Shown: piece after piece, positions 5,983 through 26,612 of the stretch
How positions within the stretch are numbered: the stretch's first letter is position 1
How the letters are laid out: every line of letters starts with the position of its first letter
Assembly (NCBI RefSeq): GCF_002201895.1
Contig: NZ_CP019436.1
Span: forward strand, 759,619 to 791,618
Direction of reading: 5' to 3'
Source of the DNA: Methanopyrus sp. SNP6
GTDB lineage: Archaea > JAADCQ01 > Methanopyri > Methanopyrales > Methanopyraceae
Length of the DNA stretch: 32,000 nt
The notes under the pieces: model-generated
Told to the model about the DNA's origin: nothing
Database searches by the model: none
Seen by the model: only the letters and a program-made list of their open reading frames with translations
Program-made: the position numbers and the translations under genes

Positions 5983-6150
5983 TCGTTTTACCCACGAATG
6001 TACGAGGTCGTTAAAATAGAAGGCGTGTCATGACGAGGGTGTGGAGTTCCTAAAGCGCGATCCGTGTTCACGAGATGGGCACAGCGTTGTTCGATCTACT
6101 TCGAAAAAGTTAAAAGGCGCGTAGCGGACGAGGATCGAGGGGGTCCGAAT

Positions 6151-6537
6151 ATGGACTTCGAGGAGTACCTCGAGAAGTGGTTCAAGGGAGAAACTACCGA
6201 AGTGGGTATCTATATGGCGATGGCTATCGTCGCTAGAGAACAGGGTTATCCCGAAGTAGGTGACTTGCTGGAGCAAATCGCCATGGACGAAGCCAGACAT
6301 GCGGCCGCAGCGGCACTGATAGCAGGTAAAGTAGAGAACAGTCTAAAGGGACTGATCGAGAAGATGGAGGAGATGATTGAAGGTGAGAAAAACGCCTACG
6401 AGACCAGGATGGACGAGGCCGACCACCACTCCGATGAGCTGGACGACGAGGTTATCACCCTGCTGAAGGCCACAGCATACGACGAGAGGCACCACAGGAA
6501 GATGCTCAAAGCGGCCCTAGAAAAGCTGAATGAGTAA
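6151..6537 (+). CDS. Rubrerythrin/ferritin-like diiron four-helix-bundle protein (no rubredoxin domain)
   Basis: Two E...ExxH pairs are present (ETTEVGIYMAMA..MDEARH and EGEKNAYE..YDERHH). The likely start is ATG 6151, with an A/T-rich block about 40 nt upstream. The track start at 6064 adds a basic, non-conserved-looking extension. Confidence 0.7.
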   Translation: MDFEEYLEKWFKGETTEVGIYMAMAIVAREQGYPEVGDLLEQIAMDEARHAAAAALIAGKVENSLKGLIEKMEEMIEGEKNAYETRMDEADHHSDELDDEVITLLKATAYDERHHRKMLKAALEKLNE

Positions 6538-6603
6538 TCCCAAGCACCTTTCTTCGTCGCCCTCGCTCAATCGTTATGACATCCGAAACGAGGGAGTGGA
6601 CCT

Positions 6604-7373
6604 TTGAGGTACGTCGACGCGCACGTACACCTCGACGTTAGGAGTTACGAAAACATCGAGAAGATGGCTTTATCTGGAGTCCGAACTGTCATCACGTGCT
6701 CTCACGATCCCTACCCTGACATGACGGCCGAAGTGTACTCCGCCCTCTTTCGGAGGCTACTCAAAGTGGAAACGTGGAGAGGCAGAAAGGCAGGGCTAAC
6801 GGTCAGAGTGGCAGTGGGAGTACATCCGGGAGGAGTACCGGATAACGTGAGTGACGTGCTACGGGAAATCGAAGATCTCCTAAGTTATGATGACGTCGTA
6901 GCGATCGGAGAGACAGGTCTCAACGAAAATCCGGACGATAGAGATCCGAGCCTTAAAGGTCCAGCTGGAGTTAGCCCGAGAATACGAGGTACCCATCATT
7001 GTCCACACGCCGAGCAAGAACAAGGTTGGAATCACCGAGAAGGTGTTGGATATCTTGAATTCCTCGGGTATAGATCCATCACTGGTGTTAGTGGACCACG
7101 CCTCGGCGGAGGACCGTCCAGCTAATCGGTGAGGAAGGGTACGCGGTTGGGCTGACACTCCGACCGGGAGAGCTCGACGTGTGGGAAGCGTGTGATATCG
7201 TAGAGGAGTACGCCGACGAGGTGACGCTCATCGCGAGCAGTGACCTGGGATCACTAGCCGCCGATCCACTCGCTCTCCCCAAGCTAGCCCTCGAACTGGA
7301 ACGCCGGAACGTCGAGAAAGGCGTTATCCGGGACGTTACAGCCCGGAACGCCAAGAGGTTTTACGGGCTCTAA
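6604..7373 (+). pseudogene. TatD-related TIM-barrel metal-dependent hydrolase interrupted by two +1 frameshifts
   Basis: The frame from 6604 reads MRYVDAHVHLD..VVAIGETGLNENPDD and then degenerates. The next frame, from about 6941, reads EIRALKVQLELAREYEVPIIVHTPSKNKVGITEKVLDILNSSGIDPSLVLVDHASAED and stops at TGA 7130. The third frame, from about 7116, reads VQLIGEEGYAVGLTLRPGELDVWEACDIVEEYADEVTLIASSDLGS..ARNAKRFYGL*. The track shows only fragments 6604..7125 and 7179..7373. Confidence 0.7.
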
Positions 7374-7593: not shown

Positions 7594-8349
7594 TTGCGCT
7601 TCGCCGCGCTCTACTCACATCCGTTCGGTAAGAGGATGATAGCCAATCTACTGAACGAACCCGGTCACTGCAGAGCTTGCGGGCCTGCATGCGACGGATG
7701 CAAGTACGACATGTACTCCCTCGTCGACTCCCTTGTCACCGTTGAGAGGATACCTAAACCGGAGGAGTTACCATCGTTCATCGACGAGCCAAAGAACTAC
7801 CTCCCAGAAATACCACCAGTAGATGTTCTTGTGGTGATCGGATTGCACCCAGACCTCCTTGTAGCGTTACCCAGAGTGTACAAAATCAAGGCACTGATAG
7901 TACCCGTCGAGGAACCCGATTGGATCGACCCGTGGATCGAGGAGAAACTACGAGAGGTGTGCGAAGGAGACGGCGTGGAGCTCACCGTGGCGAGGCCAGG
8001 GTGCGACCTGGAACCGTCGGGTCCCGTAACCGAGGCGTTCTGCGACGCGGGCATGATCGGGAAGCCTAAGCTGTTTATGAAGGTCGAGGACGGCGTCGTG
8101 ACCGACGTCAACGTAGTACGATCGGCGCCATGCGGTTGCACGTGGTTCGTGGCCAAACGACTGGTCGGTGTGGACGCTGATCCCGAAGAGGTGAAGGCTA
8201 CAGTTTCCGAGACGCACCACTCGTACCCCTGCACGGCTTCGATGGAGGTCGACAAGCACGTCGGGGACACCCTGCTCCACGTAGCGGGACGGTTGCACAT
8301 CAAGGCGGCTCTCCGAGCGCTCGAAGAAGCGATAGATACCGACACCTGA
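7594..8349 (+). CDS. Cys-rich conserved archaeal protein, DUF166-like (a family sometimes labelled archaeal thymidylate-synthase-like)
   Basis: 251 aa with a TTG start. Motifs are CRACGPACDGCKY, SAPCGCTWFVAKRLVG and HHSYPCTASM. The family assignment is from memory and moderately uncertain. Confidence 0.6.
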   Translation: MRFAALYSHPFGKRMIANLLNEPGHCRACGPACDGCKYDMYSLVDSLVTVERIPKPEELPSFIDEPKNYLPEIPPVDVLVVIGLHPDLLVALPRVYKIKALIVPVEEPDWIDPWIEEKLREVCEGDGVELTVARPGCDLEPSGPVTEAFCDAGMIGKPKLFMKVEDGVVTDVNVVRSAPCGCTWFVAKRLVGVDADPEEVKATVSETHHSYPCTASMEVDKHVGDTLLHVAGRLHIKAALRALEEAIDTDT

Positions 8350-8357
8350 TAGGCATC

Positions 8358-8786
8358 TCACTCCTCTCCTGGTACTCTCTCCAAAACTTCCCGGAACAGT
8401 CTCCACTTATCCTCGTATAGATTGTACTCCCTGCGTACGTCGTCCTCGACGTCTTCGACTCTGTAACCCACGGGATAGTACGTCGAAACAAGCTCTCCGT
8501 TTCGGCGCTTTGGTCTCAGTTCTATTTCACCCAGACGGAGCAGATCGAAGACAGCTTCCTTCACATCGACGGAGAAGTAGGGTGCCTTGAGCAGTATGCA
8601 GTGACCGTATTCAGTTCCCGTCAGTGGTCTTCCGGTCTCACGCTCGAAAGCTTTGTCCAGTAAATACACCGCACGGAACAGGGAGCGCTTGTCTAGACCG
8701 GGCCGGAACGCGACGATGTACTTCACCAGAGGCCGCAGGTTAGCGTCCGTCGGTTTGACCTTGTGACACCTGCATCGGGCATGCAA
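8358..8786 (-). CDS. Hypothetical protein; weak resemblance to DUF4065/Panacea-type domain plus a C-terminal winged-helix-like segment
   Basis: I prefer TTG 8786, which is preceded by GGGGGAG 6 nt upstream. The open frame continues to 8900 and 9191, but that part is antisense to the cooS N-terminus. The core reads LFRAVYLLDKAFERETGRPLTGTEYGHCILLKAPYF. The start is uncertain. Confidence 0.5.
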   Translation of the reverse strand: MHARCRCHKVKPTDANLRPLVKYIVAFRPGLDKRSLFRAVYLLDKAFERETGRPLTGTEYGHCILLKAPYFSVDVKEAVFDLLRLGEIELRPKRRNGELVSTYYPVGYRVEDVEDDVRREYNLYEDKWRLFREVLERVPGEE

Positions 8787-8847
8787 TCGAGGCTCCCCCT
8801 CGTATCGGTGTGTTCGGAAGTACTCAAACGTTTGATGAAAATCGAAA

Positions 8848-8857
8848 CTAATATAAG
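8848..8857. promoter_or_regulatory. A/T-rich near-palindromic TATA-like element (CTAATATAAG) between divergent cooS and the 8358..8786 gene
   Basis: It is the only A/T-rich block in the divergent region. It lies about 70 nt upstream of the cooS GTG (8925, with GGGGAG 5-9 nt upstream) and about 60 nt upstream of TTG 8786 on the other strand. Confidence 0.35.
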
Positions 8858-8924
8858 TCGAGCTACCCTCATAACGGTCGAATAATGTCGAACATTCCAA
8901 CAGTACCGAACAGGGGAGATCCCC

Positions 8925-10841
8925 GTGGAAGAGAAGAAACCTTCGTGTCCGTACACTGATGAAGTCGTATGCGAACTGGTCGAGCACGCGAAGGAGCTGA
9001 ATGAGGAGATACCGAGTGTAGAGACCCCACATATCCGATGGCCAGTTCAGTTCCCGAAATGCCCGTATGGCAAGCAGGGCGTTTGGTGTAACATCTGCTC
9101 GAACGGCCCGTGCCGGATCACGGAGAAGACGCCACGAGGTGTCTGCGGAGCGACGGCGGACGTGATCGTAGCACGGAACTTCTTGCGTCACGTCGCCGCC
9201 GGAGCCGCCTGCTACTTACACTGCCTGGAAAACGCCGCCAGGGCCTTAAAGTCCGTAGCGGACGAGGAATCCCCTTACGAGATCGCGGACGAGAAGGCGC
9301 TGAGGCACGCTGCCGAAGTTTACGGTCTAGATGCATCAGGTAAACCGGAAGACGTGGCCGAAGAGATCGCGGAGTTCATCCTCGAGGACATTTACAGGCC
9401 GAGATACGAGGAATCGGAAGTGTTCAAGGCGGTTGTGCCGGATTGGCGTATCGAGATGTATGAAGAAATGGGTCTAATTCCGGGCGGAGCTAAGTCGGAG
9501 GTACACGACGCACTCGTCAAGACAAGTACGAACCTCAACTCAGATCCCTTAGACATGCTCCTCCACGTGCTGCGGCTGGGACTGATCACCGGACCTGTTT
9601 CGCTCTTCGGAGTGGAGACGATCAACGATATCCTCTTCGGTAGCCCGAGGATCACGCAAACGGAGGGTGGTCCCGGAATATTGGATCCGGACTATGTCAA
9701 CATCATGACCACCGGTCACCAGATGTCTCTCATGAAATACCTAACGGACGCCGCCGAGAGGCTGGAAGAAGAGGCCAAGGCGGCAGGCGCTAAAGGCATC
9801 AGGATCATCGGTGCGACGTGCGTCGGTGACGATTTCGAGGCACGTGCCGACCACCTACCGGACACGTACGCGGGTTTCGCGGGCAACAATTTCGCTACGG
9901 AGGCACTCGCAGCGACGGGTCTCGTGGACGCGATCGTGAGCGAGTTTAACTGCACGTTCCCAGGTCTGAAGTTCTACGGTGAAAAGCTGGACGTTGAGCT
10001 GATCGCAGTCGACGACGTGGCTAAGGTGTGGGGAGCAAAGCTGATCTTATGGGACCCGGAGCGTGCCGAAGAGGTCGCGGAGGAGGCCGTCCGGAGAGCT
10101 ATAGAGGCGTTCAAGGAGCGGAGGTCGAAGCACGAAGATAAGATCCTAGAGCCGGAGCATAAGCACGAGAACGTGGTCGGGTTCGGATACTTCTCGATCG
10201 AGGAGGCGGTAGGTTGGGAGAACGTTCTCAAGCTGATCGAAGAGGGCACCATCCGCGGAGTGTGCGCCATCGTGGGTTGTACGAACCTCTCCAGCGGCGG
10301 CCACAACGTGCCGGCGGTCGAACTCGCAAAGGAGATGATCAAGCGCGACGTGCTCGTGCTCGGTGCAGGTTGTGTGAACGGAGCGTTCGCCAATGCTGGA
10401 ATGTTCAACCCTAAGGCAGCCGAGCTGGCCGGTGATAACCTCAGGAAGGTGTGCGAGGAGTTGAATATTCCACCGGTACTGCATTACGGCCCGTGTTTAG
10501 CGATCGGTAAAGTCGAGCATCTCGTTTTCGAGATCGCAGAGATACTTCGAGAGAAAACAGGTGAGGAAATCGACATACCGGACGTACCCGCCGTTGCGAG
10601 TGCGCCGCAGTGGCTCGAGGAGCAAGCCCTAGCGGACGCGTCCTCGGCCCTAGCTCTAGGTATCACGCTGCACGTGAGCCCAGTGCCGCCAGTGACCGGT
10701 AGCGAACTGGTTACGAAGACGTTGCTGGAAGACCTACCGGACCTCACCGGCGGCGAGCTGATTGTAGAGACGGACATGAGACGGGCCGGAAAGACCCTAG
10801 CCGATAAGATCGAAGAAAAGCGGAAACGGCTCGGTATCTAG
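8925..10841 (+). CDS. cooS: Ni-dependent anaerobic carbon monoxide dehydrogenase catalytic subunit (CooS type)
   Basis: 638 aa. The N-terminal Cys clusters read CPYGKQGVWCNICSNGPCRI..RGVCGATADVIVARNFLRHVAAGAA. Later motifs are TTGHQ, IIGATCVG and IVGCTNLSSGGHN. Size and layout match CooS rather than the roughly 800-aa CdhA. Confidence 0.9.
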   Translation: MEEKKPSCPYTDEVVCELVEHAKELNEEIPSVETPHIRWPVQFPKCPYGKQGVWCNICSNGPCRITEKTPRGVCGATADVIVARNFLRHVAAGAACYLHCLENAARALKSVADEESPYEIADEKALRHAAEVYGLDASGKPEDVAEEIAEFILEDIYRPRYEESEVFKAVVPDWRIEMYEEMGLIPGGAKSEVHDALVKTSTNLNSDPLDMLLHVLRLGLITGPVSLFGVETINDILFGSPRITQTEGGPGILDPDYVNIMTTGHQMSLMKYLTDAAERLEEEAKAAGAKGIRIIGATCVGDDFEARADHLPDTYAGFAGNNFATEALAATGLVDAIVSEFNCTFPGLKFYGEKLDVELIAVDDVAKVWGAKLILWDPERAEEVAEEAVRRAIEAFKERRSKHEDKILEPEHKHENVVGFGYFSIEEAVGWENVLKLIEEGTIRGVCAIVGCTNLSSGGHNVPAVELAKEMIKRDVLVLGAGCVNGAFANAGMFNPKAAELAGDNLRKVCEELNIPPVLHYGPCLAIGKVEHLVFEIAEILREKTGEEIDIPDVPAVASAPQWLEEQALADASSALALGITLHVSPVPPVTGSELVTKTLLEDLPDLTGGELIVETDMRRAGKTLADKIEEKRKRLGI

Positions 10842-10861
10842 TTCCAACCCACACTTCCGGG

Positions 10862-11974
10862 ATGGTGATGGTCATGGAGATCGAGGCGATCCGTATCGCA
10901 ACGGGAGCTCCTGGCGATCTGTATATGGTGGCAGAAATCGCGGAGGGCGAGGTTGTAAACGCCGAAGTGTGCTCTAGTACGACACCAGTCTCCTGGGAGA
11001 CGCTCGTCCTCGAGAAGCCCGTGGAGTTCGCCGTGGTAGCAGCCGAACGAGTATGCGCCAGCTGTGACGCGAGTCTAGGGCTCGCCGTAGCCGAGGCGGC
11101 CGAGGCGGCTCTTGACGTCGAGATCCAGGACGAAGCAGAGCGAGCGCGTGAGATTCTGAACATGGCTAACATCGTCAGGGCACACGCCACCGTGCTGGCG
11201 AGGACCGACTTCATCAACGTGAAGAAGCCAGCATACGACCTGGTAAAGGCAGCGAAAGACATCATGCATGCCGTCGGAGGAAAGCCAGATCACCCACCGG
11301 CCGTGACCGTAGGAGGTATGAACATCGAAAGGCTACCCGTAAACAGGATTGAATCCGTAGCCAAAGATGCCGCCGATGTAGCAGACAGGCTCGAAGACGA
11401 GGTCGGATTCGAGGTAGATCGGGCGGAGGAAGGTATCAATGTGGAGACTGAAGAGGTACCGACGGGACTGAAGGTTTCGGATACATACAAGGGCGACATA
11501 GATCCAGACAAGGTCGAGGTTCTAATGCCGGACGAGTTCTACCGGATGAGAACCACCCTGAAGATAGCGAACAACGTCGTCGCCAGGTATGACGGGGAAC
11601 CCGTCCTCGTCGGTCCTTACGCCCGAGTAAGGAGAGTGGAGAACCCGCTAGACCTCTACACCGTCAGGGCCGAGGAAATAGCGAGGATGCTCGACGGTAT
11701 CGCAAACGCCACATCCGGGCTAGACCCGACCGGGAACTTCCGAACGGACGTCGAGCTCGGCTCGGGAGTGGGTACGGCGGCCGTGGAGGCACCAGAAGGT
11801 ACTCTGATCGTCTCGCTGGAACTACGGGCGGGGCGCGTGGATAAAGCCCTGATGCTAACACCATGCAACTTCAAGGTTGCGGCGGTCGTGGAGATGGTAC
11901 GCGGCCTGACGGTTGACGGGGCTGAAACCGTTCTGCGCGCGGTCGGCCTCTCCGGTAGATGTCTTACTCACTAG
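10862..11974 (+). CDS. [NiFe]-hydrogenase large-subunit-like protein (FrhA-like) with a degenerate active-site ligand set
   Basis: 370 aa. The N-terminal motif ERVCASCDASL replaces RxCGxCxxxH (CxxC kept, His lost). The C-terminus ..VGLSGRCLTH* replaces DPCxxCxxH, with Ser at the first Cys position, and the protein ends exactly at the His. Confidence 0.8.
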   Translation: MVMVMEIEAIRIATGAPGDLYMVAEIAEGEVVNAEVCSSTTPVSWETLVLEKPVEFAVVAAERVCASCDASLGLAVAEAAEAALDVEIQDEAERAREILNMANIVRAHATVLARTDFINVKKPAYDLVKAAKDIMHAVGGKPDHPPAVTVGGMNIERLPVNRIESVAKDAADVADRLEDEVGFEVDRAEEGINVETEEVPTGLKVSDTYKGDIDPDKVEVLMPDEFYRMRTTLKIANNVVARYDGEPVLVGPYARVRRVENPLDLYTVRAEEIARMLDGIANATSGLDPTGNFRTDVELGSGVGTAAVEAPEGTLIVSLELRAGRVDKALMLTPCNFKVAAVVEMVRGLTVDGAETVLRAVGLSGRCLTH

Positions 11975-11986
11975 GGGGAGCTCGAA

Positions 11987-12712
11987 GTGAAGGTGGCTGT
12001 TCTGTCCCTTATGGCTTGTGGTGCATGCGCCAGGAACCTGGAGGAGTGTTGCTACGAAGATGGTCATGAGATAGTCTGGTCGAGCCTAGATGGCGACGAA
12101 GGAGAACCGGACGCCGACGTTCTGTTCGTAGAAGGCTCGGTGGACTTTGCCGACGCCGAGACCCTGGAGAAGTTAGAGGAGGCGGCTTCAGCCGCCAGCA
12201 CTGTGGTATCACTGGGCTCCTGTGCTGCCACCGGAGGTTTCGAGCGACACGTTATAGGCATGCGCGATCCCGACAGACACCACTTTACGGTCTTCCCAGC
12301 CGCCAAATTCATCGACACGGACTATGCTATCAACGGCTGCCCACCCACTACTGACGTGATCGCATCCTTCCTCAGAGCGCTAGAGGAGGGGAACGAGGAT
12401 GAACTCCGGCCGTACGAAGTCCTGTCCGGGGATTTCCACGAGCTTACACCGGAGTCATCCCAAGTAACCGGTCCGACGATACCGGTCGAGGACGTGCTCC
12501 TGACGTCGAACAAGGACTTGTGCTTAGGCTGTGACTTAGACGTGATTGAGAGAGATCTCTTCTGCGTTGGCTGCGGAACGTGCGCCGCCTCCTGTCCGGC
12601 GTGGGCCATCGAGATGGACGAGAAACCAGTGATCCAACAAGAGAGATGCATTCGGTGCGGAACTTGCTTCGTGAGTTGTCCTAGATCGTTCGAGATCCCC
12701 AATGGGAGGTGA
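11987..12712 (+). CDS. [NiFe]-hydrogenase small-subunit-like Fe-S protein (FrhG-like) with a C-terminal 2x[4Fe-4S] ferredoxin domain
   Basis: 241 aa. The proximal-cluster ligand pattern is MACGAC, LGSCAATGGF and INGCPP. These are followed by CVGCGTCAASCP and CIRCGTCFVSCP. Confidence 0.8.
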   Translation: MKVAVLSLMACGACARNLEECCYEDGHEIVWSSLDGDEGEPDADVLFVEGSVDFADAETLEKLEEAASAASTVVSLGSCAATGGFERHVIGMRDPDRHHFTVFPAAKFIDTDYAINGCPPTTDVIASFLRALEEGNEDELRPYEVLSGDFHELTPESSQVTGPTIPVEDVLLTSNKDLCLGCDLDVIERDLFCVGCGTCAASCPAWAIEMDEKPVIQQERCIRCGTCFVSCPRSFEIPNGR

Positions 12713-12715
12713 TCT

Positions 12716-13627
12716 ATGTTGCGCAAACTGATCCGAAAAATGGTGAATAAAAACAAAGATGAACCCACAAAGAACGACCCCCTGGACTCCGAGATCGTAG
12801 GTAAGTACCGTGAAATCTACTTAACCAGAGCAACGGACGAACTCATTCGCGAGCGCGGACAGGACGGAGGTACCACTACTGCGCTGCTAGCCCACGCGTT
12901 GGAGAAGGGTACGGTGGAAGCCGTAGTCACTTCGACTACCACAACAGAAGCTTGGAAGCCCGAGCCCGTGATCGTCACCGATCCAGACGAACTAATCGAG
13001 ACAGCCGGATCGAAGTACTCAATCTCTCCAAACGTTAGCGTCCTCGACAGGGCCATAGCTTCGTATGACTCAGTAGCCCTCGTAGGGACGCCGTGTCAAA
13101 TTACCGCAGTGAAGAAGTCGGAGGTGTACCCTTACGGAATGACCAGCGTGATGGATAGGGTGGAACTGACAGTCGGTATCTTCTGCACCGAGAACTTCCA
13201 GTACGAGAACCTACTGAAGTTACTTGAAGATATAGAAGTAAGCATCGAGAACGTCGAGCGTATGGACATCAGTCGTGGTAAATTCGTAGTAAAAACCGAG
13301 GACGGTGATGAACGGTCGGTACCGGTTTCCGAGCTAGGCGATTACGCCAATGAAGCGTGTAACTACTGCACGGATTTAACGGCTGAGGACGCAGACGTCA
13401 GCGTGGGATCCGTAGGCGCGCCAGACGGGTGGAATATCGTCCTGATTCGAACGAAGAGAGGCGAGAAGGTGTTCCGATCCGCCGTAGACGACAACGTCCT
13501 AGAAGTCAAGGGTATCGGAGAAGGGGATCCGAACCTGCTCGAGAGACTGGCCAGGGACAAGAAGAGGCGCATTCATACCTCAGTGTGTGCCACTTGGAGG
13601 CCCTACCACCCAAACATTCCATTATAA
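12716..13627 (+). CDS. FrhB/FdhB-family F420-interacting flavo-Fe-S subunit (FrhB-like)
   Basis: 303 aa with family hallmarks RGQDGGTTTALLAHALEKG, GSKYSISPNVS, VGTPCQITA, VGIFCTENF and CNYCTDLTAEDADVSVGSVG. Confidence 0.85.
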   Translation: MLRKLIRKMVNKNKDEPTKNDPLDSEIVGKYREIYLTRATDELIRERGQDGGTTTALLAHALEKGTVEAVVTSTTTTEAWKPEPVIVTDPDELIETAGSKYSISPNVSVLDRAIASYDSVALVGTPCQITAVKKSEVYPYGMTSVMDRVELTVGIFCTENFQYENLLKLLEDIEVSIENVERMDISRGKFVVKTEDGDERSVPVSELGDYANEACNYCTDLTAEDADVSVGSVGAPDGWNIVLIRTKRGEKVFRSAVDDNVLEVKGIGEGDPNLLERLARDKKRRIHTSVCATWRPYHPNIPL

Positions 13628-13650
13628 TTCTTTACTCAGGGGTCAGAGCT

Positions 13651-14115
13651 GTGATAGGACCGCGGGACTTCCTGAGGTACTTCCTCTTCTCTTACATAGT
13701 CACCTCTGCACAGCTGCTTGGAGATAAAGCTCCAACTCTGCGGCGAATGGTATGCAAAAACGCGGTAAAGGCGTTACTGCGCGAGCATCCGGAGCTGAAA
13801 GACGTTGAGCCTGTAGAGCTTGTCAAAACTGTGGCAGAGAGCCTTCTAGGGGCAGACGTCAGGGTAGATGAGAAGTCGGAAGAAGCAGTCGTACATGTGA
13901 GAGGGTGTGAGATCTGCCCTCGCGATCTGATCGAAGAGTTCGTAGGCGAAAACCCCAGCTTAGAAGGTCACATCTTCAGCTACAACGTGTGCGCGTTTGC
14001 GACTATGGCTGAGGAGGTTCTGCACGCTCTGGATTATGATTTCATCATCGAACACGAACCGATCAAACGCGGGCACTGCCGCGTAATCGTCAAGTCTAGG
14101 GATACTGAGAATTGA
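13651..14115 (+). CDS. Small V4R-like (4-vinyl-reductase-type) domain protein, divergent
   Basis: I place the start at GTG 13651, which has ATTATAATTC 25-30 nt upstream. The track start at 13429 lies inside frhB-like. The architecture VVHVRGCEICPRD..HIFSYNVCAFATMAEEVL..EPIKRGHCRVIVKS parallels the V4R domain of the next gene. The family call is tentative. Confidence 0.5.
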   Translation: MIGPRDFLRYFLFSYIVTSAQLLGDKAPTLRRMVCKNAVKALLREHPELKDVEPVELVKTVAESLLGADVRVDEKSEEAVVHVRGCEICPRDLIEEFVGENPSLEGHIFSYNVCAFATMAEEVLHALDYDFIIEHEPIKRGHCRVIVKSRDTEN

Positions 14116-14678
14116 TCTCCAGTTGACGTCCCTACGTCTCCTCAAAGTGACCTGGGAGGTAGGTGTTATCGGCACGTGAACACGTCAGATACGGGTTACT
14201 GAGGCATCGGCCCGCGCGCTACCCTCGATCGACTCCTAGGGAAACGGTACGATTTTTTCCGTCCGTCTAAAGAACGTTCGAAGTTCCTTCCCCGCTCGAT
14301 GGGGAAGTCTTGAGCTCGTCGTCAGACCTCCGCCGTCTTCGTCGTGCTAAAGACTTCTCAGGACTCGGGAGTCATCCTGGCGGGGCTAGGGACAGTAACT
14401 ACTGTGACATGGTTTCGGTTACATTGAAAATCGAAGTCGAACGGATCACTCGGAAAACCACGGGCGATGATCCGACTTGTACTGGGAGCTTGAATCCTGC
14501 TAGGCAGTACCGATCGGTGGGCGGTTGTTTAACCTTGGATAAAGAAGATTAGGATAACGACGCGTTGAGGACGGGTATCTGTTAACCTGATGAGACGAGT
14601 CTGGGACCCGGTTTGGGCAGGGGGCACCCGAGCTGACGGCGCGGCTCGACGGTCGGAACCTTCAAGGGGGTCCGAGCT

Positions 14679-15416
14679 ATGAAGTTGATGATTAACGTGC
14701 CGAAGGAGATCGCAAAGGCTTTGGACAGCAAAACGCGGCGTGAGATTCTGAAACTGCTGGAAGAACGCGGATCGATGACTATATCGGATATCGCCAAAGA
14801 ACTGAACATGTCCAAATCGACTGTTCATCACCATTTGCAGGAACTCCGAAAGGTCGGTCTCGTGGACGTCATTAAGGAGGACCGCGAAACTCCACTCCCG
14901 AAGCGTTACTACGGGCTAGTGAGGAGACCCGTCCGAGTGTCGGAACCGAAGCTCGAAGACGCGTCCAAATACGTCATGAAAGTCCTAGAACGTGGGGAAG
15001 ATCTGGGAACGTCGATGGCACTAGTGATCGCGGCCGCATATCGCGCGGTGTTGGAATCGCTGGGTATTGACGCTTCGGAGGTCCTGTACGAGCTCGGAAA
15101 GGAGGTCGGTAAGCGACTAGCGGAACTGGAACCTGGGGAGGACGTGCTACGGAAGGGCTTAGAGATCATAGCAGAGTCAGTGGAATTCCGTCAGGAGGAC
15201 GACCGTGTGGTGGTCGAGATTGAAGGATGTCGAGAGTGTTCCGACCTACCCTACGGCCCCGCATGTCATCTGGAAGCGGGAATAATAGCTGGTGTTCTGT
15301 CGAGTTTGAGGGAACTAACTTACGAAGTCCGAGAGATAGAGTGCTGCGGAGAGGGCGCTCATAAATGCGTGTTCGTGGCGGAGCCAGCTACTGGCGAAGA
15401 ACACCCCAGGTCCTAG
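14679..15416 (+). CDS. ArsR-type winged-helix transcription regulator fused to a V4R domain
   Basis: 245 aa. The N-terminal HTH reads RREILKLLEERGSMTISDIAKELNMSKSTVHHHLQELRKVGLV. The C-terminal V4R pattern reads VVEIEGCRECSD..PACHLEAGIIAGVL..EIECCGEGAHKCVFV. Confidence 0.75.
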   Translation: MKLMINVPKEIAKALDSKTRREILKLLEERGSMTISDIAKELNMSKSTVHHHLQELRKVGLVDVIKEDRETPLPKRYYGLVRRPVRVSEPKLEDASKYVMKVLERGEDLGTSMALVIAAAYRAVLESLGIDASEVLYELGKEVGKRLAELEPGEDVLRKGLEIIAESVEFRQEDDRVVVEIEGCRECSDLPYGPACHLEAGIIAGVLSSLRELTYEVREIECCGEGAHKCVFVAEPATGEEHPRS

Positions 15417-18500: not shown

Positions 18501-19274
18501 TTGAAGAAACCCGTCGACGCTCATTGTCATCTTTGCTTCGAACACTTCAAAGGCGAGGAAGACGAAGTGGTGGAACGGTCACGGAAGAAGGTGTTACGTG
18601 TGTACGATTGCGGGGCTACTCCTGGAACCGCACGGCGGACCCTAGAGTTAGCGGAAAGATTCGAGGGGTTCGTGTTCCCCACGATCGGACTCCATCCTCC
18701 ACGAGCGCCGAGGATGCAGCAAAGCGTCATCGATGACGTGGTCCGAATTATCCGTGAGCATACCGATAGGATTGCGGCAATCGGAGAGATAGGTCTTGAC
18801 TATTACTACGTGAAGGAACCAGGAGAGCGCAGGAAGATGCGAGAGATCTTCGAGAGGTTTCTGAAGCTCGCGGAAGAGCTCGACAAGCCGGTAGTGATCC
18901 ACGCCAGGGATGCGGAGGAGCACGCCCTCGAGGTCCTGGAGGGCTACGACGTAGTTGCCATGTTCCACTGCTACGACGGGTCGGCCGAGCTCGCTCGGCG
19001 TATCGCGGACGCCGGCCACTACGTTTCACTGTCGACGATTCACGTCATTCGTGGATCGAAGGATGAGAGAACGCGGGAATTGCTGGAGACGGTACCGTTA
19101 GGAGCGGCGCTTACGGAGACGGACAGTCCGTACCTGTCACCGGTGCGGGGAGAACGCAACGAGCCTCGAAACGTGTGGAGGATAATAGAGCTGCTTGCGC
19201 GAGTGAAAGGAGTTCCCGTCGACGAGGTAGTTGAGACCACAACTCGTAACGCGTTGGAGTTCTACGACCTATGA
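18501..19274 (+). CDS. tatD: TatD-family metal-dependent hydrolase (intact)
   Basis: 257 aa with a TTG start. Motifs are VDAHCHL, IGLHP, AIGEIGLDYYY, VVIHARDA and TETDSPYL. Confidence 0.85.
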   Translation: MKKPVDAHCHLCFEHFKGEEDEVVERSRKKVLRVYDCGATPGTARRTLELAERFEGFVFPTIGLHPPRAPRMQQSVIDDVVRIIREHTDRIAAIGEIGLDYYYVKEPGERRKMREIFERFLKLAEELDKPVVIHARDAEEHALEVLEGYDVVAMFHCYDGSAELARRIADAGHYVSLSTIHVIRGSKDERTRELLETVPLGAALTETDSPYLSPVRGERNEPRNVWRIIELLARVKGVPVDEVVETTTRNALEFYDL

Positions 19275-19310: not shown

Positions 19311-19441
19311 CCGTGGCGGCGGCCACAGCGGCCGGGGCCACACCCGGGCCACATCTCGAACCCGGAAGTTAAGCCCGGCCGCGTCCCGGGTGGTACTGCG
19401 CTCCGAGAGGGCGCGGGAAGCCCGGGATGCCGCCGCCGCTG
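19311..19441 (+). rRNA. rrf: 5S ribosomal RNA
   Basis: It contains the conserved 5S core ..CCACACCCGG..CUCGAACCCGGAAGUUAAGCC..GUACUGCGCUCCGAGAGGGCGCGGGAAGCC... Terminal helix I forms between GUGGCGGCGGC (5') and GCCGCCGCCGC (3'). Ends are good to +/-3 nt. Track ORF 19231..19485 is an artefact of this gene. Confidence 0.9.
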
Positions 19442-20819: not shown

Positions 20820-20839
20820 ACATTGTAACGATAGCCGTG

Positions 20840-20913
20840 TGGCCCCGCCGGGATTTGAACCCGGGCTACGGGCTCCGCAGGCCCGCGTCCTATCCAGGCT
20901 AGACTGCGGGGCC
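20840..20913 (-). tRNA. tRNA-Arg (anticodon GCG), no intron, CCA not encoded
   Basis: Hand-folded cloverleaf: GGCCCCG-CA-GTCT-AGCCTGGATA-GGAC-G-CGGGC-CTGCGGA-GCCCG-TAGC-CCGGG-TTCAAAT-CCCGG-CGGGGCC-A. All four stems pair. Position 8 is C. Confidence 0.95.
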
Positions 20914-22879: not shown

Positions 22880-23884
22880 TTGTGGTCGTCCGTGCTCGCG
22901 TTCGCTACCGCACTCTGTTGGATAGGTTCGGAATTGTTGGTTTCGAGCCTTATAACGATCGGAGAAACCAGCGGTATCCCAGAAAGTGTACTAGGAGTAC
23001 TGGTCTCGGCTCCTGGCACCTCGCTCCCGGAATTCGGATCCTCACTTGTAGCTACTCTCGCAGAACACAAACCTGACGTAGGCGTCGGATGTGTTGTGGG
23101 TTCAAACGTATATAACTTATGTGGGATTTTAGGGATAGCGACTTTAGTAACGGTCATGAAGACTAAGACTCCGATTGAAGTTTCTAGATATCCAGTAATC
23201 GACGCGGTAGTATCAGCAGGAGTTATAGCGATGCTCATTGCAATGACTATTGACGGCATGATAACTAAATGGGATGGCGTATTGTTCTTCGTTATTTATT
23301 GCATATACGCATATGCTCTTATAAAGCATGGCAAAACGCACGGGGAGGAGAATAAGGAAGCAGAAAGGAAAGAAAGGTACGAACAGCACACAAAAGACGC
23401 AGGCGTATCTGTAGTAATGAGCCTGGACTCTCGTAGTAAGTTTAAAGTGGTGACAAAACTTGTAGTGGGAATAGGGTTGTTCGCAATCTCTGTGAGATTG
23501 CTTGTAAAAGCAACTATAAAGCTTTCCATAATTCTTGGATACCCATCGGCTCTCTTAGGTTACACCATATTGGCTATCGCTACCTCACTTCCGGAAACAT
23601 TTACCACGATTAGCGCCGCTGTTAAGGGTCACGGCGACCTAGCTGTAACCAACATATTGGGGAGCAATAACTTCAATATACTCATGGGAATCGGTATTCC
23701 GTCCCTATTCGGTGGTGTTGCCACCACCCTGGCTGATAGACGTCTAACAGTCATCCTTCTGACCGCCACTTTAGCAGCACTCCCCTTCATCTACCGAAGA
23801 CGAATCGGTATACTTTTCTCACTAACTATGTTCGCCTTTTATAGTCTGTTCATCTACTACACTGTTGCATTGATTACTCATTAA
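22880..23884 (+). CDS. Ca2+/Na+ (cation/Ca2+) antiporter, CaCA/YrbG-NCX family
   Basis: 334 aa and polytopic. The two alpha-repeats read SAPGTSLPEFGSSLVAT..GSNVYNL and IATSLPETFTTISAAVKG..GSNNFNI. Confidence 0.85.
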   Translation: MWSSVLAFATALCWIGSELLVSSLITIGETSGIPESVLGVLVSAPGTSLPEFGSSLVATLAEHKPDVGVGCVVGSNVYNLCGILGIATLVTVMKTKTPIEVSRYPVIDAVVSAGVIAMLIAMTIDGMITKWDGVLFFVIYCIYAYALIKHGKTHGEENKEAERKERYEQHTKDAGVSVVMSLDSRSKFKVVTKLVVGIGLFAISVRLLVKATIKLSIILGYPSALLGYTILAIATSLPETFTTISAAVKGHGDLAVTNILGSNNFNILMGIGIPSLFGGVATTLADRRLTVILLTATLAALPFIYRRRIGILFSLTMFAFYSLFIYYTVALITH

Positions 23885-23906
23885 TGTCAGTTAAAAGGGT
23901 GATAAA

Positions 23907-24458
23907 TTGGAAATGGTAGGTGATAACTTGACTGAGCCTACGTATCATGACCATAAGAAACATTCACCTGAAACCCTCCGTCTCGCTATTATGACGGTTA
24001 GTAACAGTAAGTTCGACCAAGCTGCTCGCAATAGACATCCAGATGACCCTTCAGGAGACATCCTGCAACAAAAGCTTGAGGAGACTGATTGTAAAGTCGT
24101 CTACCGTACCTTACTTCCGGATCAATCGGACGTGATCGTCGGTATGGTGAAGTGGTTTGTTGATCGCGTTCATGCTATTGTCATAGTGGGAGGCACTGGC
24201 ATAACGCCAACTGACACTACTATTGAAGCTTTAAAGCGTATCGCTGATAAGCAAGTTCCGGGATTCGGTGAGCTATTTCGTCGTCGATCCGAGAAGGAAA
24301 TAGGAGTCCACGCCGCCCTAACTCGTGCCACGATGTACATAGTCGACAAGACTCCAGTCGCTTGTCTGCCAGGGTCACCGCATGCCGCAGAGCTCGGTGC
24401 CGAGATACTCGTTGAACTCTTACCACATGCTGTCGTTCATAGCCGCGGCGACGCCTAG
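23907..24458 (+). CDS. moaB: Molybdenum cofactor biosynthesis protein B (MoaB/MogA-type molybdopterin adenylyltransferase)
   Basis: 183 aa with IVIVGGTGITPTDTTIEAL, PGFGELFR and LPGSPHAA. Confidence 0.85.
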   Translation: MEMVGDNLTEPTYHDHKKHSPETLRLAIMTVSNSKFDQAARNRHPDDPSGDILQQKLEETDCKVVYRTLLPDQSDVIVGMVKWFVDRVHAIVIVGGTGITPTDTTIEALKRIADKQVPGFGELFRRRSEKEIGVHAALTRATMYIVDKTPVACLPGSPHAAELGAEILVELLPHAVVHSRGDA

Positions 24459-25085: not shown

Positions 25086-25100
25086 ATCATCCCCGCCGCT

Positions 25101-26612
<1,512 letters not shown>

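Follow-up and report, generated by a model that had tools for sequence, protein, structure and literature searches.

The window analysed here, 32,000 nt of DNA from the heat-loving methanogen Methanopyrus sp. SNP6, carries at positions 8925-13627 a module of four genes whose products we read as a CO:F420 oxidoreductase that would supply reduced coenzyme F420 (F420H2) for defence against O2 and reactive oxygen species (ROS). In our judgement this reading stands about an even chance of being right. The module joins CooS, a carbon monoxide dehydrogenase that contains nickel (Ni-CODH) and is of clade C, to relatives of the three structural subunits of F420-reducing [NiFe] hydrogenase (Frh), which are written here with a prime:

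8925-10841, + strand: cooS, 638 amino acids (aa), clade C Ni-CODH catalytic subunit
10862-11974, + strand: frhA', 370 aa, degenerate [NiFe]-hydrogenase large-subunit homologue (pseudo-hydrogenase)
11987-12712, + strand: frhG', 241 aa, small-subunit homologue plus 2x[4Fe-4S] ferredoxin domain
12716-13627, + strand: frhB', 303 aa, subunit for F420, flavin adenine dinucleotide (FAD) and a [4Fe-4S] cluster

In the mechanism that we favour, CO would be oxidised at an intact Ni-Fe-S C-cluster of CooS, and electrons would leave by way of the CooS B-cluster, without a D-cluster, to pass through the three [4Fe-4S] clusters of FrhG' and the [4Fe-4S] cluster of FrhB' to FAD and finally to F420. FrhA', catalytically dead, would support FrhG' structurally and might offer CooS a surface to dock on. 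The enzyme would be cytoplasmic, its operon would be repressed by an MsvR-type redox regulator and released under oxidising conditions, and its F420H2 would feed enzymes that detoxify O2 and ROS, e.g., F420H2 oxidase (FprA). With E0' values of about -520 mV for CO2/CO and about -340 mV for F420, the transfer of electrons from CO to F420 releases roughly 33 kJ/mol. From sequence and gene context we infer that the four proteins form a complex, that CO is its substrate, which way the electrons flow and that MsvR controls the operon. An earlier reading of the DNA letters without database searches (the sequence-only reading) had proposed an electron wire of this kind, from CODH over an Fe-S relay and a flavin to F420. 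The wire is strengthened, in that FrhG' and FrhB' keep every cofactor ligand, but turnover of CO is not given. The direct link of CO chemistry to the F420 pool of the methanogen, which was part of the same proposal, has to be recast: the likely role is defence against oxygen and redox stress rather than the feeding of methanogenesis, because MsvR boxes and genes for rubrerythrin, FprA and AhpC lie in the neighbourhood.

The order cooS-frhA'-frhG'-frhB' was found in every Methanopyri locus retrieved (L001-L005, L010-L013) and also in genomes and metagenome-assembled genomes (MAGs) of Methanocaldococcus (L006, L008, L009, L014-L016, L019); three further loci (L007, L017, L018) reach the contig end before frhB' and are not informative on the full order. 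Between the two lineages identity amounts to 54% in CooS, about 36-37% in FrhG', 36% in FrhB' and 24% in FrhA'. The search for synteny in other archaea that the sequence-only reading had suggested thus shows a recurrent four-gene order and not a chance adjacency. The neighbourhood as such is already known, while the enzyme itself has never been studied: synteny of cooS with frh-like genes was published in 2011 and again in 2026, with the function given as "unclear" (PMC3082573, PMC13240472), and Matson et al. are among the earlier reports of the cooS-frh' neighbourhood. No biochemical study of an enzyme of the cooS-frh' type turned up in the literature searched, which agrees with the earlier remark that no enzyme of this subunit composition had been characterised, and the search found no report of an F420-dependent CO dehydrogenase. 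The degenerate FrhA', the loss of the D-cluster in association with Frh', the separate canonical Fru locus and the MsvR boxes were likewise not found in the literature searched.

The product of the first gene belongs to the CooS-type Ni-CODHs, as had been proposed: it scores 722.7 bits against the TIGR01702 hidden Markov model (HMM; cut-off 478) and 501.9 bits against Prismane. All six C-cluster ligands are present (H265, C299, C343, C452, C483, C524; reference ChCODH-II H261, C295, C333, C446, C476, C526), and so are the B-cluster cysteines C55, C58, C63 and C74. While family membership and these two clusters stand, two other features of a typical Ni-CODH are gone, namely the acid-base residues and the D-cluster pair. 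His93 and Lys563 of ChCODH-II correspond to Tyr97 and Gln567 in CooS, a combination common to all 120 closest homologues and published as the signature of clade C (PMC6344411). At residues 96-100 (9210-9224), the Frh'-linked archaeal CooS share a C-Y-x-H-C motif, with an extra cysteine (Cys100) beside the Tyr that replaces the acid-base residue; bacterial clade C proteins have C-Y-L-H-V/I at this position.

The D-cluster site (KCPYGKQGVWC) retains one cysteine, C46, the second position being Trp54, or Tyr in Methanocaldococcus. This loss of the pair matches structural group C-3 of PMC6344411. The second cysteine is missing in all seven CooS clusters of the Frh' lineage, and in L013 and L015 as well, whereas most of the 113 bacterial clade C homologues inspected keep the ...GVCC pair in their common motifs, and so do 3/3 other archaeal clade C CooS. 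The D-cluster is normally the docking site of CooF. That it has been lost precisely where FrhG' and FrhB' replace CooF and the FAD-NAD(P) oxidoreductase (FNOR) speaks, more strongly than anything else in the sequences, for a joint function of CooS and the Frh' module, and suggests an exit of electrons straight from the CooS B-cluster.

Both FrhG' and FrhB' look functional. FrhG' matches Oxidored_q6 and Fer4 and reaches 142 bits against TIGR03294, below the cut-off of 245.5. The motifs previously noted in it (CGAC, GSCAATGG, GCPP and two CxxCxxCxxxCP) were all recovered, and in neither lineage does any of its 14 cluster cysteines vary (proximal C11, C14, C79 and C118, two CxxCxxCxxxC, and the CxxC at 179/182), from which three [4Fe-4S] clusters are expected. 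FrhB' matches FrhB_FdhB_N and FrhB_FdhB_C and passes PRK09325 (345.7 bits, cut-off 269); it scores 268.8 bits against the frhB equivalog, below the cut-off of 331.5, and 229 bits against solved FrhB (3zfs_C). The FAD/F420 blocks reported for it are confirmed, QDGG, the four cluster cysteines and other blocks being invariant, so that the F420/FAD module appears to be kept. At its N-terminus FrhB' is extended in a lineage-specific way. Both FrhB' lineages share, at the C-terminus, a "KC[AS]" tail which canonical FrhB lacks and which argues for a single origin of the Frh' module.

FrhA' is, by its residues, no working hydrogenase, the NiFe catalytic machinery having apparently been lost. It scores 121.4 bits against TIGR03295 (cut-off 392.5), and Pfam NiFeSe_Hases covers its N-terminal part only. 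In an alignment to the solved FrhA of M. marburgensis, the N-terminal CxxC is kept (RVCASC, within RVCASCDASL), and DPCxxCxxH has become GLSGRCLTH with Ser at the first C-terminal cysteine (Cys3); three of the four NiFe cysteines and the terminal His are thereby kept in Methanopyri. PRGxxxH has become PEGTLIV, with Glu in place of the conserved active-site Arg, and RxEGH has become TGAPGD, without the proton-gate Glu. The Ser, the Arg-to-Glu replacement and the changes in RxEGH are invariant in 9/9 family members. The protein stops at His370, directly followed by the stop codon, which matches the mature C-terminus of FrhA; accordingly there is no extension to cleave, and no FrhD is needed. In Methanocaldococcus FrhA' is 298 aa long, ~40 residues being missing from its start; the N-terminal motif there reads CxxN, and at the C-terminus the CxxC is kept without the His. 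Only two of the four NiFe cysteines are therefore shared by both lineages, each keeping three with a different third one.

The sequence-only reading had taken the three proteins as paralogues of the Frh structural subunits. This holds for family membership, but in FrhA' a NiFe cysteine, the catalytic Arg and the proton-gate Glu have been lost, and these losses disfavour the alternative of a CO-linked hydrogenase that the same reading had offered. An exhaustive HMM search of 1.84 billion representatives returned the FrhA' family as the sole cluster above 1e-30 (649 bits), with the next match at 119 bits. In the 22 next-best sequences inspected, the DPCxxC cysteine pair is retained unless the sequence breaks off immediately ahead of it, and all but two have PRG; the full-length ones, except P0190, keep CGxCxxx(H/Q). 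P0190, an unrelated FrhA homologue from a Methanobacteriaceae MAG, has partly degenerate motifs (RICATDSLTH, IEGSTG, NPCSHCATH), which suggests that loss of the NiFe site in group 3a large subunits may have occurred more than once. The AlphaFold model of FrhA' (predicted local distance difference test, pLDDT, 76; predicted template modelling score, pTM, 0.82) has its best matches in FrhA structures (template modelling score, TM, 0.74-0.77), and distant fold matches include complex I (6yj4_D). The ratios of nonsynonymous to synonymous substitution rates (dN/dS), calculated per gene across four Methanopyri pairs, are as follows:

cooS: 0.03-0.14
frhG': 0.11-0.25
frhB': 0.18-0.38
frhA': 0.23-0.37, exceeding the other genes in three pairs out of four

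frhA' is a maintained gene and among the least constrained of the four.

At the level of the class, the frh'-type genes are not the only Frh set. In "Methanopyri archaeon" MAG loci (L026-L033), reached through the HMM match P0188/P0331, we found a canonical FruA-FrhG-FrhB locus, whose FruA has RHEGH, CGICQATH, PRGTNVH and D-I-TGA(Sec)-ASCAAH, the TGA encoding selenocysteine (Sec), followed by a 22-residue extension, and which continues downstream with FrhG (238 aa) and FrhB (306 aa). FrhA', FrhG' and FrhB' of the window share 29%, 38% and 42% identity with this set, and the Sec position of canonical FruA is Ser in FrhA'. The objection that the module could be the sole Frh of the organism, raised together with the first proposal, is removed by this Sec-containing locus for the class Methanopyri.

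The four open reading frames (ORFs) lie on the same strand with gaps of 20, 12 and 3 nt, exactly as first read. The start of frhA' is possibly at 10868 or 10874, as relatives start at M3 or M5, and public gene calls for frhA' begin 2-4 codons after the start of the 370-aa ORF. An exact-sequence look-up of the 370-aa ORF gave no match; the FrhA' protein is 100% identical to an NCBI entry of Methanopyrus sp. SNP6. Each of the four genes is preceded by a Shine-Dalgarno-like motif (GGGGAG- or GGTGAT-type). Transcription signals were scanned as TATA and oligo-T elements, a bacterial sigma-70/terminator scan being uninformative for an archaeon. The elements around the module are:

8813-8846, + strand: two overlapping MsvR-type boxes, one mismatch each, just 5' of the TATA element and including the palindrome TCAAACGTTTGA at 8824-8835
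8851-8856, + strand: TATA-like element ATATAA, cooS promoter, ~70 nt 5' of the start codon
8877-8910, + strand: two more one-mismatch MsvR-type boxes, 3' of the TATA element, near the expected transcription start
13660-14115, + strand: conserved 151-aa Cys-containing protein, possible fifth operon gene, Methanopyri-specific
14253-14258, + strand: T6 run, candidate archaeal terminator
14679-15416, + strand: MsvR-like regulator (ArsR-type helix-turn-helix (HTH) plus V4R domain)
6090-6537, + strand: perfect MsvR box (6090-6105), then a rubrerythrin gene (ATG at 6151)

The ATATAA at 8851 is conserved in six Methanopyri lineages, and within 8300-14700 the only other TATA-like hexamer is at 13622, over the frhB' stop codon. 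The T6 run is the sole + strand oligo-T of at least five within 8900-14700. A TATA element before cooS and a single T-run past the 151-aa gene fit one transcript from cooS to frhB', and we infer that the four genes form one operon, which perhaps extends into the 151-aa gene. The product of the latter has four invariant cysteines (incl. GCxICP) and is encoded 3' of frhB' in all Methanopyri loci; the gene is absent from the Methanocaldococcus loci. The protein has no Pfam or NCBIfam match and only a faint likeness to the V4R domain (BLASTP E=0.02, hhalign probability 39%). Between this gene and the msvR-like gene (14116-14678) lie 560 nt without an ORF, where the gap in related Methanopyri is ~70-115 nt; the stretch shows no similarity in relatives, no Rfam match and no repeats. 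A 277-aa antisense ORF listed at 8358-9191 (- strand), over the cooS start, was rejected as a gene in the form listed: a match to a conserved, family-less protein of relatives is confined to the ~147 residues at its end (8358-~8801), and the remainder is a shadow that cooS casts on the opposite strand. In this region the MAG loci L001-L005 have an extra DUF1678 gene, which the window lacks there.

The 32-kb window is devoid of cooF, cooC, cdh/acs and frhD genes, in accordance with the sequence-only reading. A CooF-type ferredoxin and an FNOR were found neither in the window nor in the Frh'-linked loci, and a frhD or HycI-type gene neither in the window nor in related loci.

The promoter elements suggest how the operon is controlled. 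MsvR is a methanogen redox regulator of the F420H2-oxidase operon, with boxes of the consensus TTCGN8CGAA around the TATA element and the transcription start; the F420H2 oxidase FpaA is a known target (PMC3729527). The 124 nt before cooS hold four boxes with at most one mismatch, against 0.07 expected from the 26 such matches over the whole 32 kb. At the position equivalent to 8813-8846 the box is perfect in L010, L012 and L013, and at that equivalent to 8877-8910 in L010 and L012. The MsvR-like regulator matches HTH_5 and V4R above the Pfam cut-offs, and its gene stays linked to the cooS-frh' cluster in all Methanopyri loci despite rearrangement; boxes also precede the msvR-like gene in L001, L005 and L011. 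From these elements the cooS operon looks redox-regulated. The perfect box before the rubrerythrin gene recurs in five relatives, and the gene at 6151 is probably a member of the same regulon. In two other archaeal loci a perfect MsvR box lies between divergent CooS-V-like and MsvR-like genes (L022, 8840-8855, TTCGTGATTATACGAA; L024, 4573-4588, TTCGTATAATTACGAA). These CooS-V-like proteins have no Cys295 equivalent and a CxxC-type D site, and the pairing of MsvR with CODH thus seems to be wider than the cooS-frh' operon.

In Methanocaldococcus, genes for desulfoferrodoxin (SOR), rubredoxins, ferritin, AhpC, rubrerythrin and FprA directly precede the cluster, and in L023, from another archaeon, AhpC, rubrerythrin, FprA and CooS stand in a row. 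A NikR-type regulator follows 3' of frhB' in L006 (12475-14712 region), L015, L016 and L019, with a hybrid-cluster protein (HCP) gene after it in the first three. Further downstream are TatD and DUF166 genes in L006 and a DUF166 gene in L016; both families lie upstream of cooS in Methanopyrus.

Several observations weigh against a CO:F420 oxidoreductase under MsvR control. CODHs of the common clade C type have yet to be characterised, and recent surveys predict that clade C has little or no activity on CO/CO2 (PMC13056359, PMC6344411); the Tyr97 and Gln567 that stand for the acid-base His93 and Lys563 would point in the same direction. There is no cooC nickel-insertion gene in the window or in the flanks examined. 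As to regulation, every box of the cooS promoter in the window deviates from the consensus at one position, MsvR boxes are absent from the Methanocaldococcus loci, and the regulator, although matched over its full length, reaches 105 bits against NF053755 and so remains below the cut-off of 220. FrhB-family modules usually oxidise F420H2 on detoxifying enzymes such as Fsr, so that the flow could reverse. Residues near the former NiFe site (R63, C65, E309, E312, R366, C367) are conserved between FrhA' lineages of 24% identity, and together with the proximal cluster of FrhG' they indicate that FrhA' may do more than serve as a scaffold. The reading also presumes that the four proteins assemble and that CooS would find a docking place among them. 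Growth of T. kivui on CO needs a clade C CooS, as summarised in PMC13056359, and we regard turnover of CO by the CooS of Methanopyrus as plausible but not to be taken for granted.

The main rival, unlikely in our view but with a real claim to attention, reverses the flow, so that F420H2 would pass electrons through FrhB' and FrhG' to a repurposed CooS site reducing an oxidant, in analogy to Fsr; hydroxylamine, NO, nitrite, O2-derived species or another small molecule would be candidates. In its favour counts that the related CooS-V slowly reduces hydroxylamine. CooS-V does not interconvert CO and CO2 (PMC13056359), CooS-V-like genes of other archaea adjoin MsvR-like genes with perfect boxes, and the acid-base residues of clade C CooS are replaced by Tyr/Gln (PMC6344411). 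Reversal would also suit the reductant-consuming neighbours (HCP, FprA, rubrerythrin, AhpC, SOR) and the function of FrhB-family modules as entry points of F420H2 in Fsr, FGltS and Fpo (PMC3448663). It fits poorly with the retention of all six C-cluster ligands, including the Cys295 equivalent that CooS-V lacks, with NikR directly 3' in Methanocaldococcus, as would befit a Ni enzyme, and with the clade C CooS that, in the summary of PMC13056359, supports growth of T. kivui on CO; nor does the sequence name a candidate substrate. We consider it improbable that the complex senses or regulates, i.e. that slow turnover reports CO or the redox state without metabolic flux. Regulatory or redox-modulatory roles have been proposed for clade C (PMC13056359), recent surveys suggest sensing or regulation for clades C and D, constraint on FrhA' is relaxed, and regulators are linked to the cluster (MsvR-like in Methanopyri, NikR in Methanocaldococcus). 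However, for a sensor it would be expensive to build four subunits and to equip them with FAD, the C- and B-clusters and four [4Fe-4S] clusters besides; purifying selection is strong on FrhG' and on CooS (dN/dS 0.03-0.14), and there is no output domain.

That FrhA' still activates or evolves H2 at a modified metal site, in a CO-linked hydrogenase or an H2- and F420-linked CODH that would form H2 from CO or perform H2:F420 chemistry, appears very unlikely. The FrhA-like fold, the three of four cysteines and terminal His in Methanopyri, the proximal-cluster ligands of FrhG' and a C-terminus at the mature His, for which no endopeptidase is needed, would permit it; it is opposed by the Ser at the cysteine that is Sec in canonical Methanopyri FruA, the lost Arg and proton-gate Glu, the different cysteine trio without His in Methanocaldococcus, and the TIGR03295 score of 121 against 392.5. 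We give hardly any credence to the view that ordinary F420-reducing hydrogenase genes merely lie beside cooS without a functional link. Database annotations do name the three proteins as Frh subunits, but the class has a canonical FruA-FrhG-FrhB locus at another place, the cooS-frhA'G'B' order is kept across two classes in which CooS is 54% and FrhA' 24% identical, the loss of the D-cluster cysteine exactly tracks the link to Frh', and the intergenic gaps are tiny.

A further possibility concerns FrhA' itself. The former NiFe pocket, with three cysteines and a conserved Glu at the Arg site, might form a new metal or Fe-S centre together with the proximal cluster of FrhG', a proposal that we make with considerable doubt. 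Such a centre could be a relay from the CooS B-cluster to FrhG' or a second catalytic site. If true, the enzyme would be of a new kind, in which a CODH without a D-cluster is joined to the scaffold of a former hydrogenase that now works as a relay or reductase, and the complex would possibly act on a substrate other than CO.

Elsewhere in the window, a TatD-like gene between the rubrerythrin and DUF166 genes (6592-7364) is split over frames 1, 2 and 3, compared with an intact orthologue of 263 aa in L001, and is either a pseudogene or affected by sequence errors; a second, intact TatD gene lies at 18501-19274. The 16S rRNA (25100-26612, - strand), 5S rRNA (19315-19438, + strand) and tRNA-Arg(GCG) (20839-20913, - strand) genes are not linked to one another, and no 23S gene was found beside the 16S gene in the window. 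G+C rises to 0.66-0.68 in the rRNA; a low of 0.44 is seen at 23001-24000, within the Na/Ca-exchanger gene.

The CO:F420 oxidoreductase that we propose has its closest parallel in the bacterial clade C modules of CooS, CooF and FNOR. These share the CooS clade with Tyr/Gln at the acid-base positions, the same logic of a CODH whose electrons pass an Fe-S relay to a flavoprotein reducing a soluble two-electron carrier, and a link to rubrerythrin and oxidative-stress genes. Wu in 2005 reportedly proposed such a tie to rubrerythrin and oxidative stress for ChCODH-IV, a functional analogue from another clade (cited in PMC13240472). The archaeal module differs in that FrhG' and FrhB' replace CooF and the FNOR, that the carrier would be F420 instead of NAD(P), and that a pseudo-hydrogenase subunit has been added while the D-cluster pair for CooF docking has been lost. 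With FrhABG/FruABG (PDB 3zfs, 4omf, 4ci0, 6qgr, 9r51) it shares the folds of all three subunits, the three [4Fe-4S] clusters of FrhG' and the [4Fe-4S]/FAD/F420 module of FrhB'; it differs in a FrhA' without Cys3, Arg, Glu and C-terminal extension, in the absence of frhD, and in its electron source, which would be CooS and not H2.

F420 modules of the FrhB type are likewise joined through Fe-S clusters to other catalytic units in Fsr, FGltS, FpoF and FdhB, and Fsr serves detoxification in vent methanogens (PMC3448663). In contrast to Fsr-type enzymes, the catalytic unit here is a Ni-CODH, and the linker is a separate FrhG'/FrhA' pair without a fused ferredoxin domain. Large subunits without the full cysteine set are kept beside an Fe-S small subunit in NuoD of complex I, Mbx/Mbs and Ehr, which are non-hydrogenase redox complexes of the membrane-bound group 4. 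FrhA', by contrast, comes from the soluble group 3a (Frh) lineage and keeps three of the four cysteines. For the regulation, the MsvR-controlled fpaA-rlp-rub operon of M. thermautotrophicus provides a parallel, with an HTH-V4R regulator beside its targets, boxes flanking the TATA element and start, and targets that include a rubrerythrin-type protein and F420H2-linked O2 defence (PMC3729527). The present case departs from it in the target, cooS-frh', in the imperfect boxes and in a regulator below the MsvR equivalog cut-off.

If the proposed function holds, the complex would be the archaeal equivalent of the CooS-CooF-FNOR modules of bacteria, and with it the subunit composition of an F420-dependent CO dehydrogenase would be defined for the first time. 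The poorly understood clade C CODHs would gain a testable function, with CO-dependent reduction of F420 and O2-induced expression as predictions. Complex I evolved from membrane hydrogenases, and the retention of a soluble group 3a large subunit in a new redox complex after loss of its active site would parallel that origin. For the strictly anaerobic methanogens of vents, it would mean that CO, or the CODH scaffold, is tied to the defence against oxygen stress.

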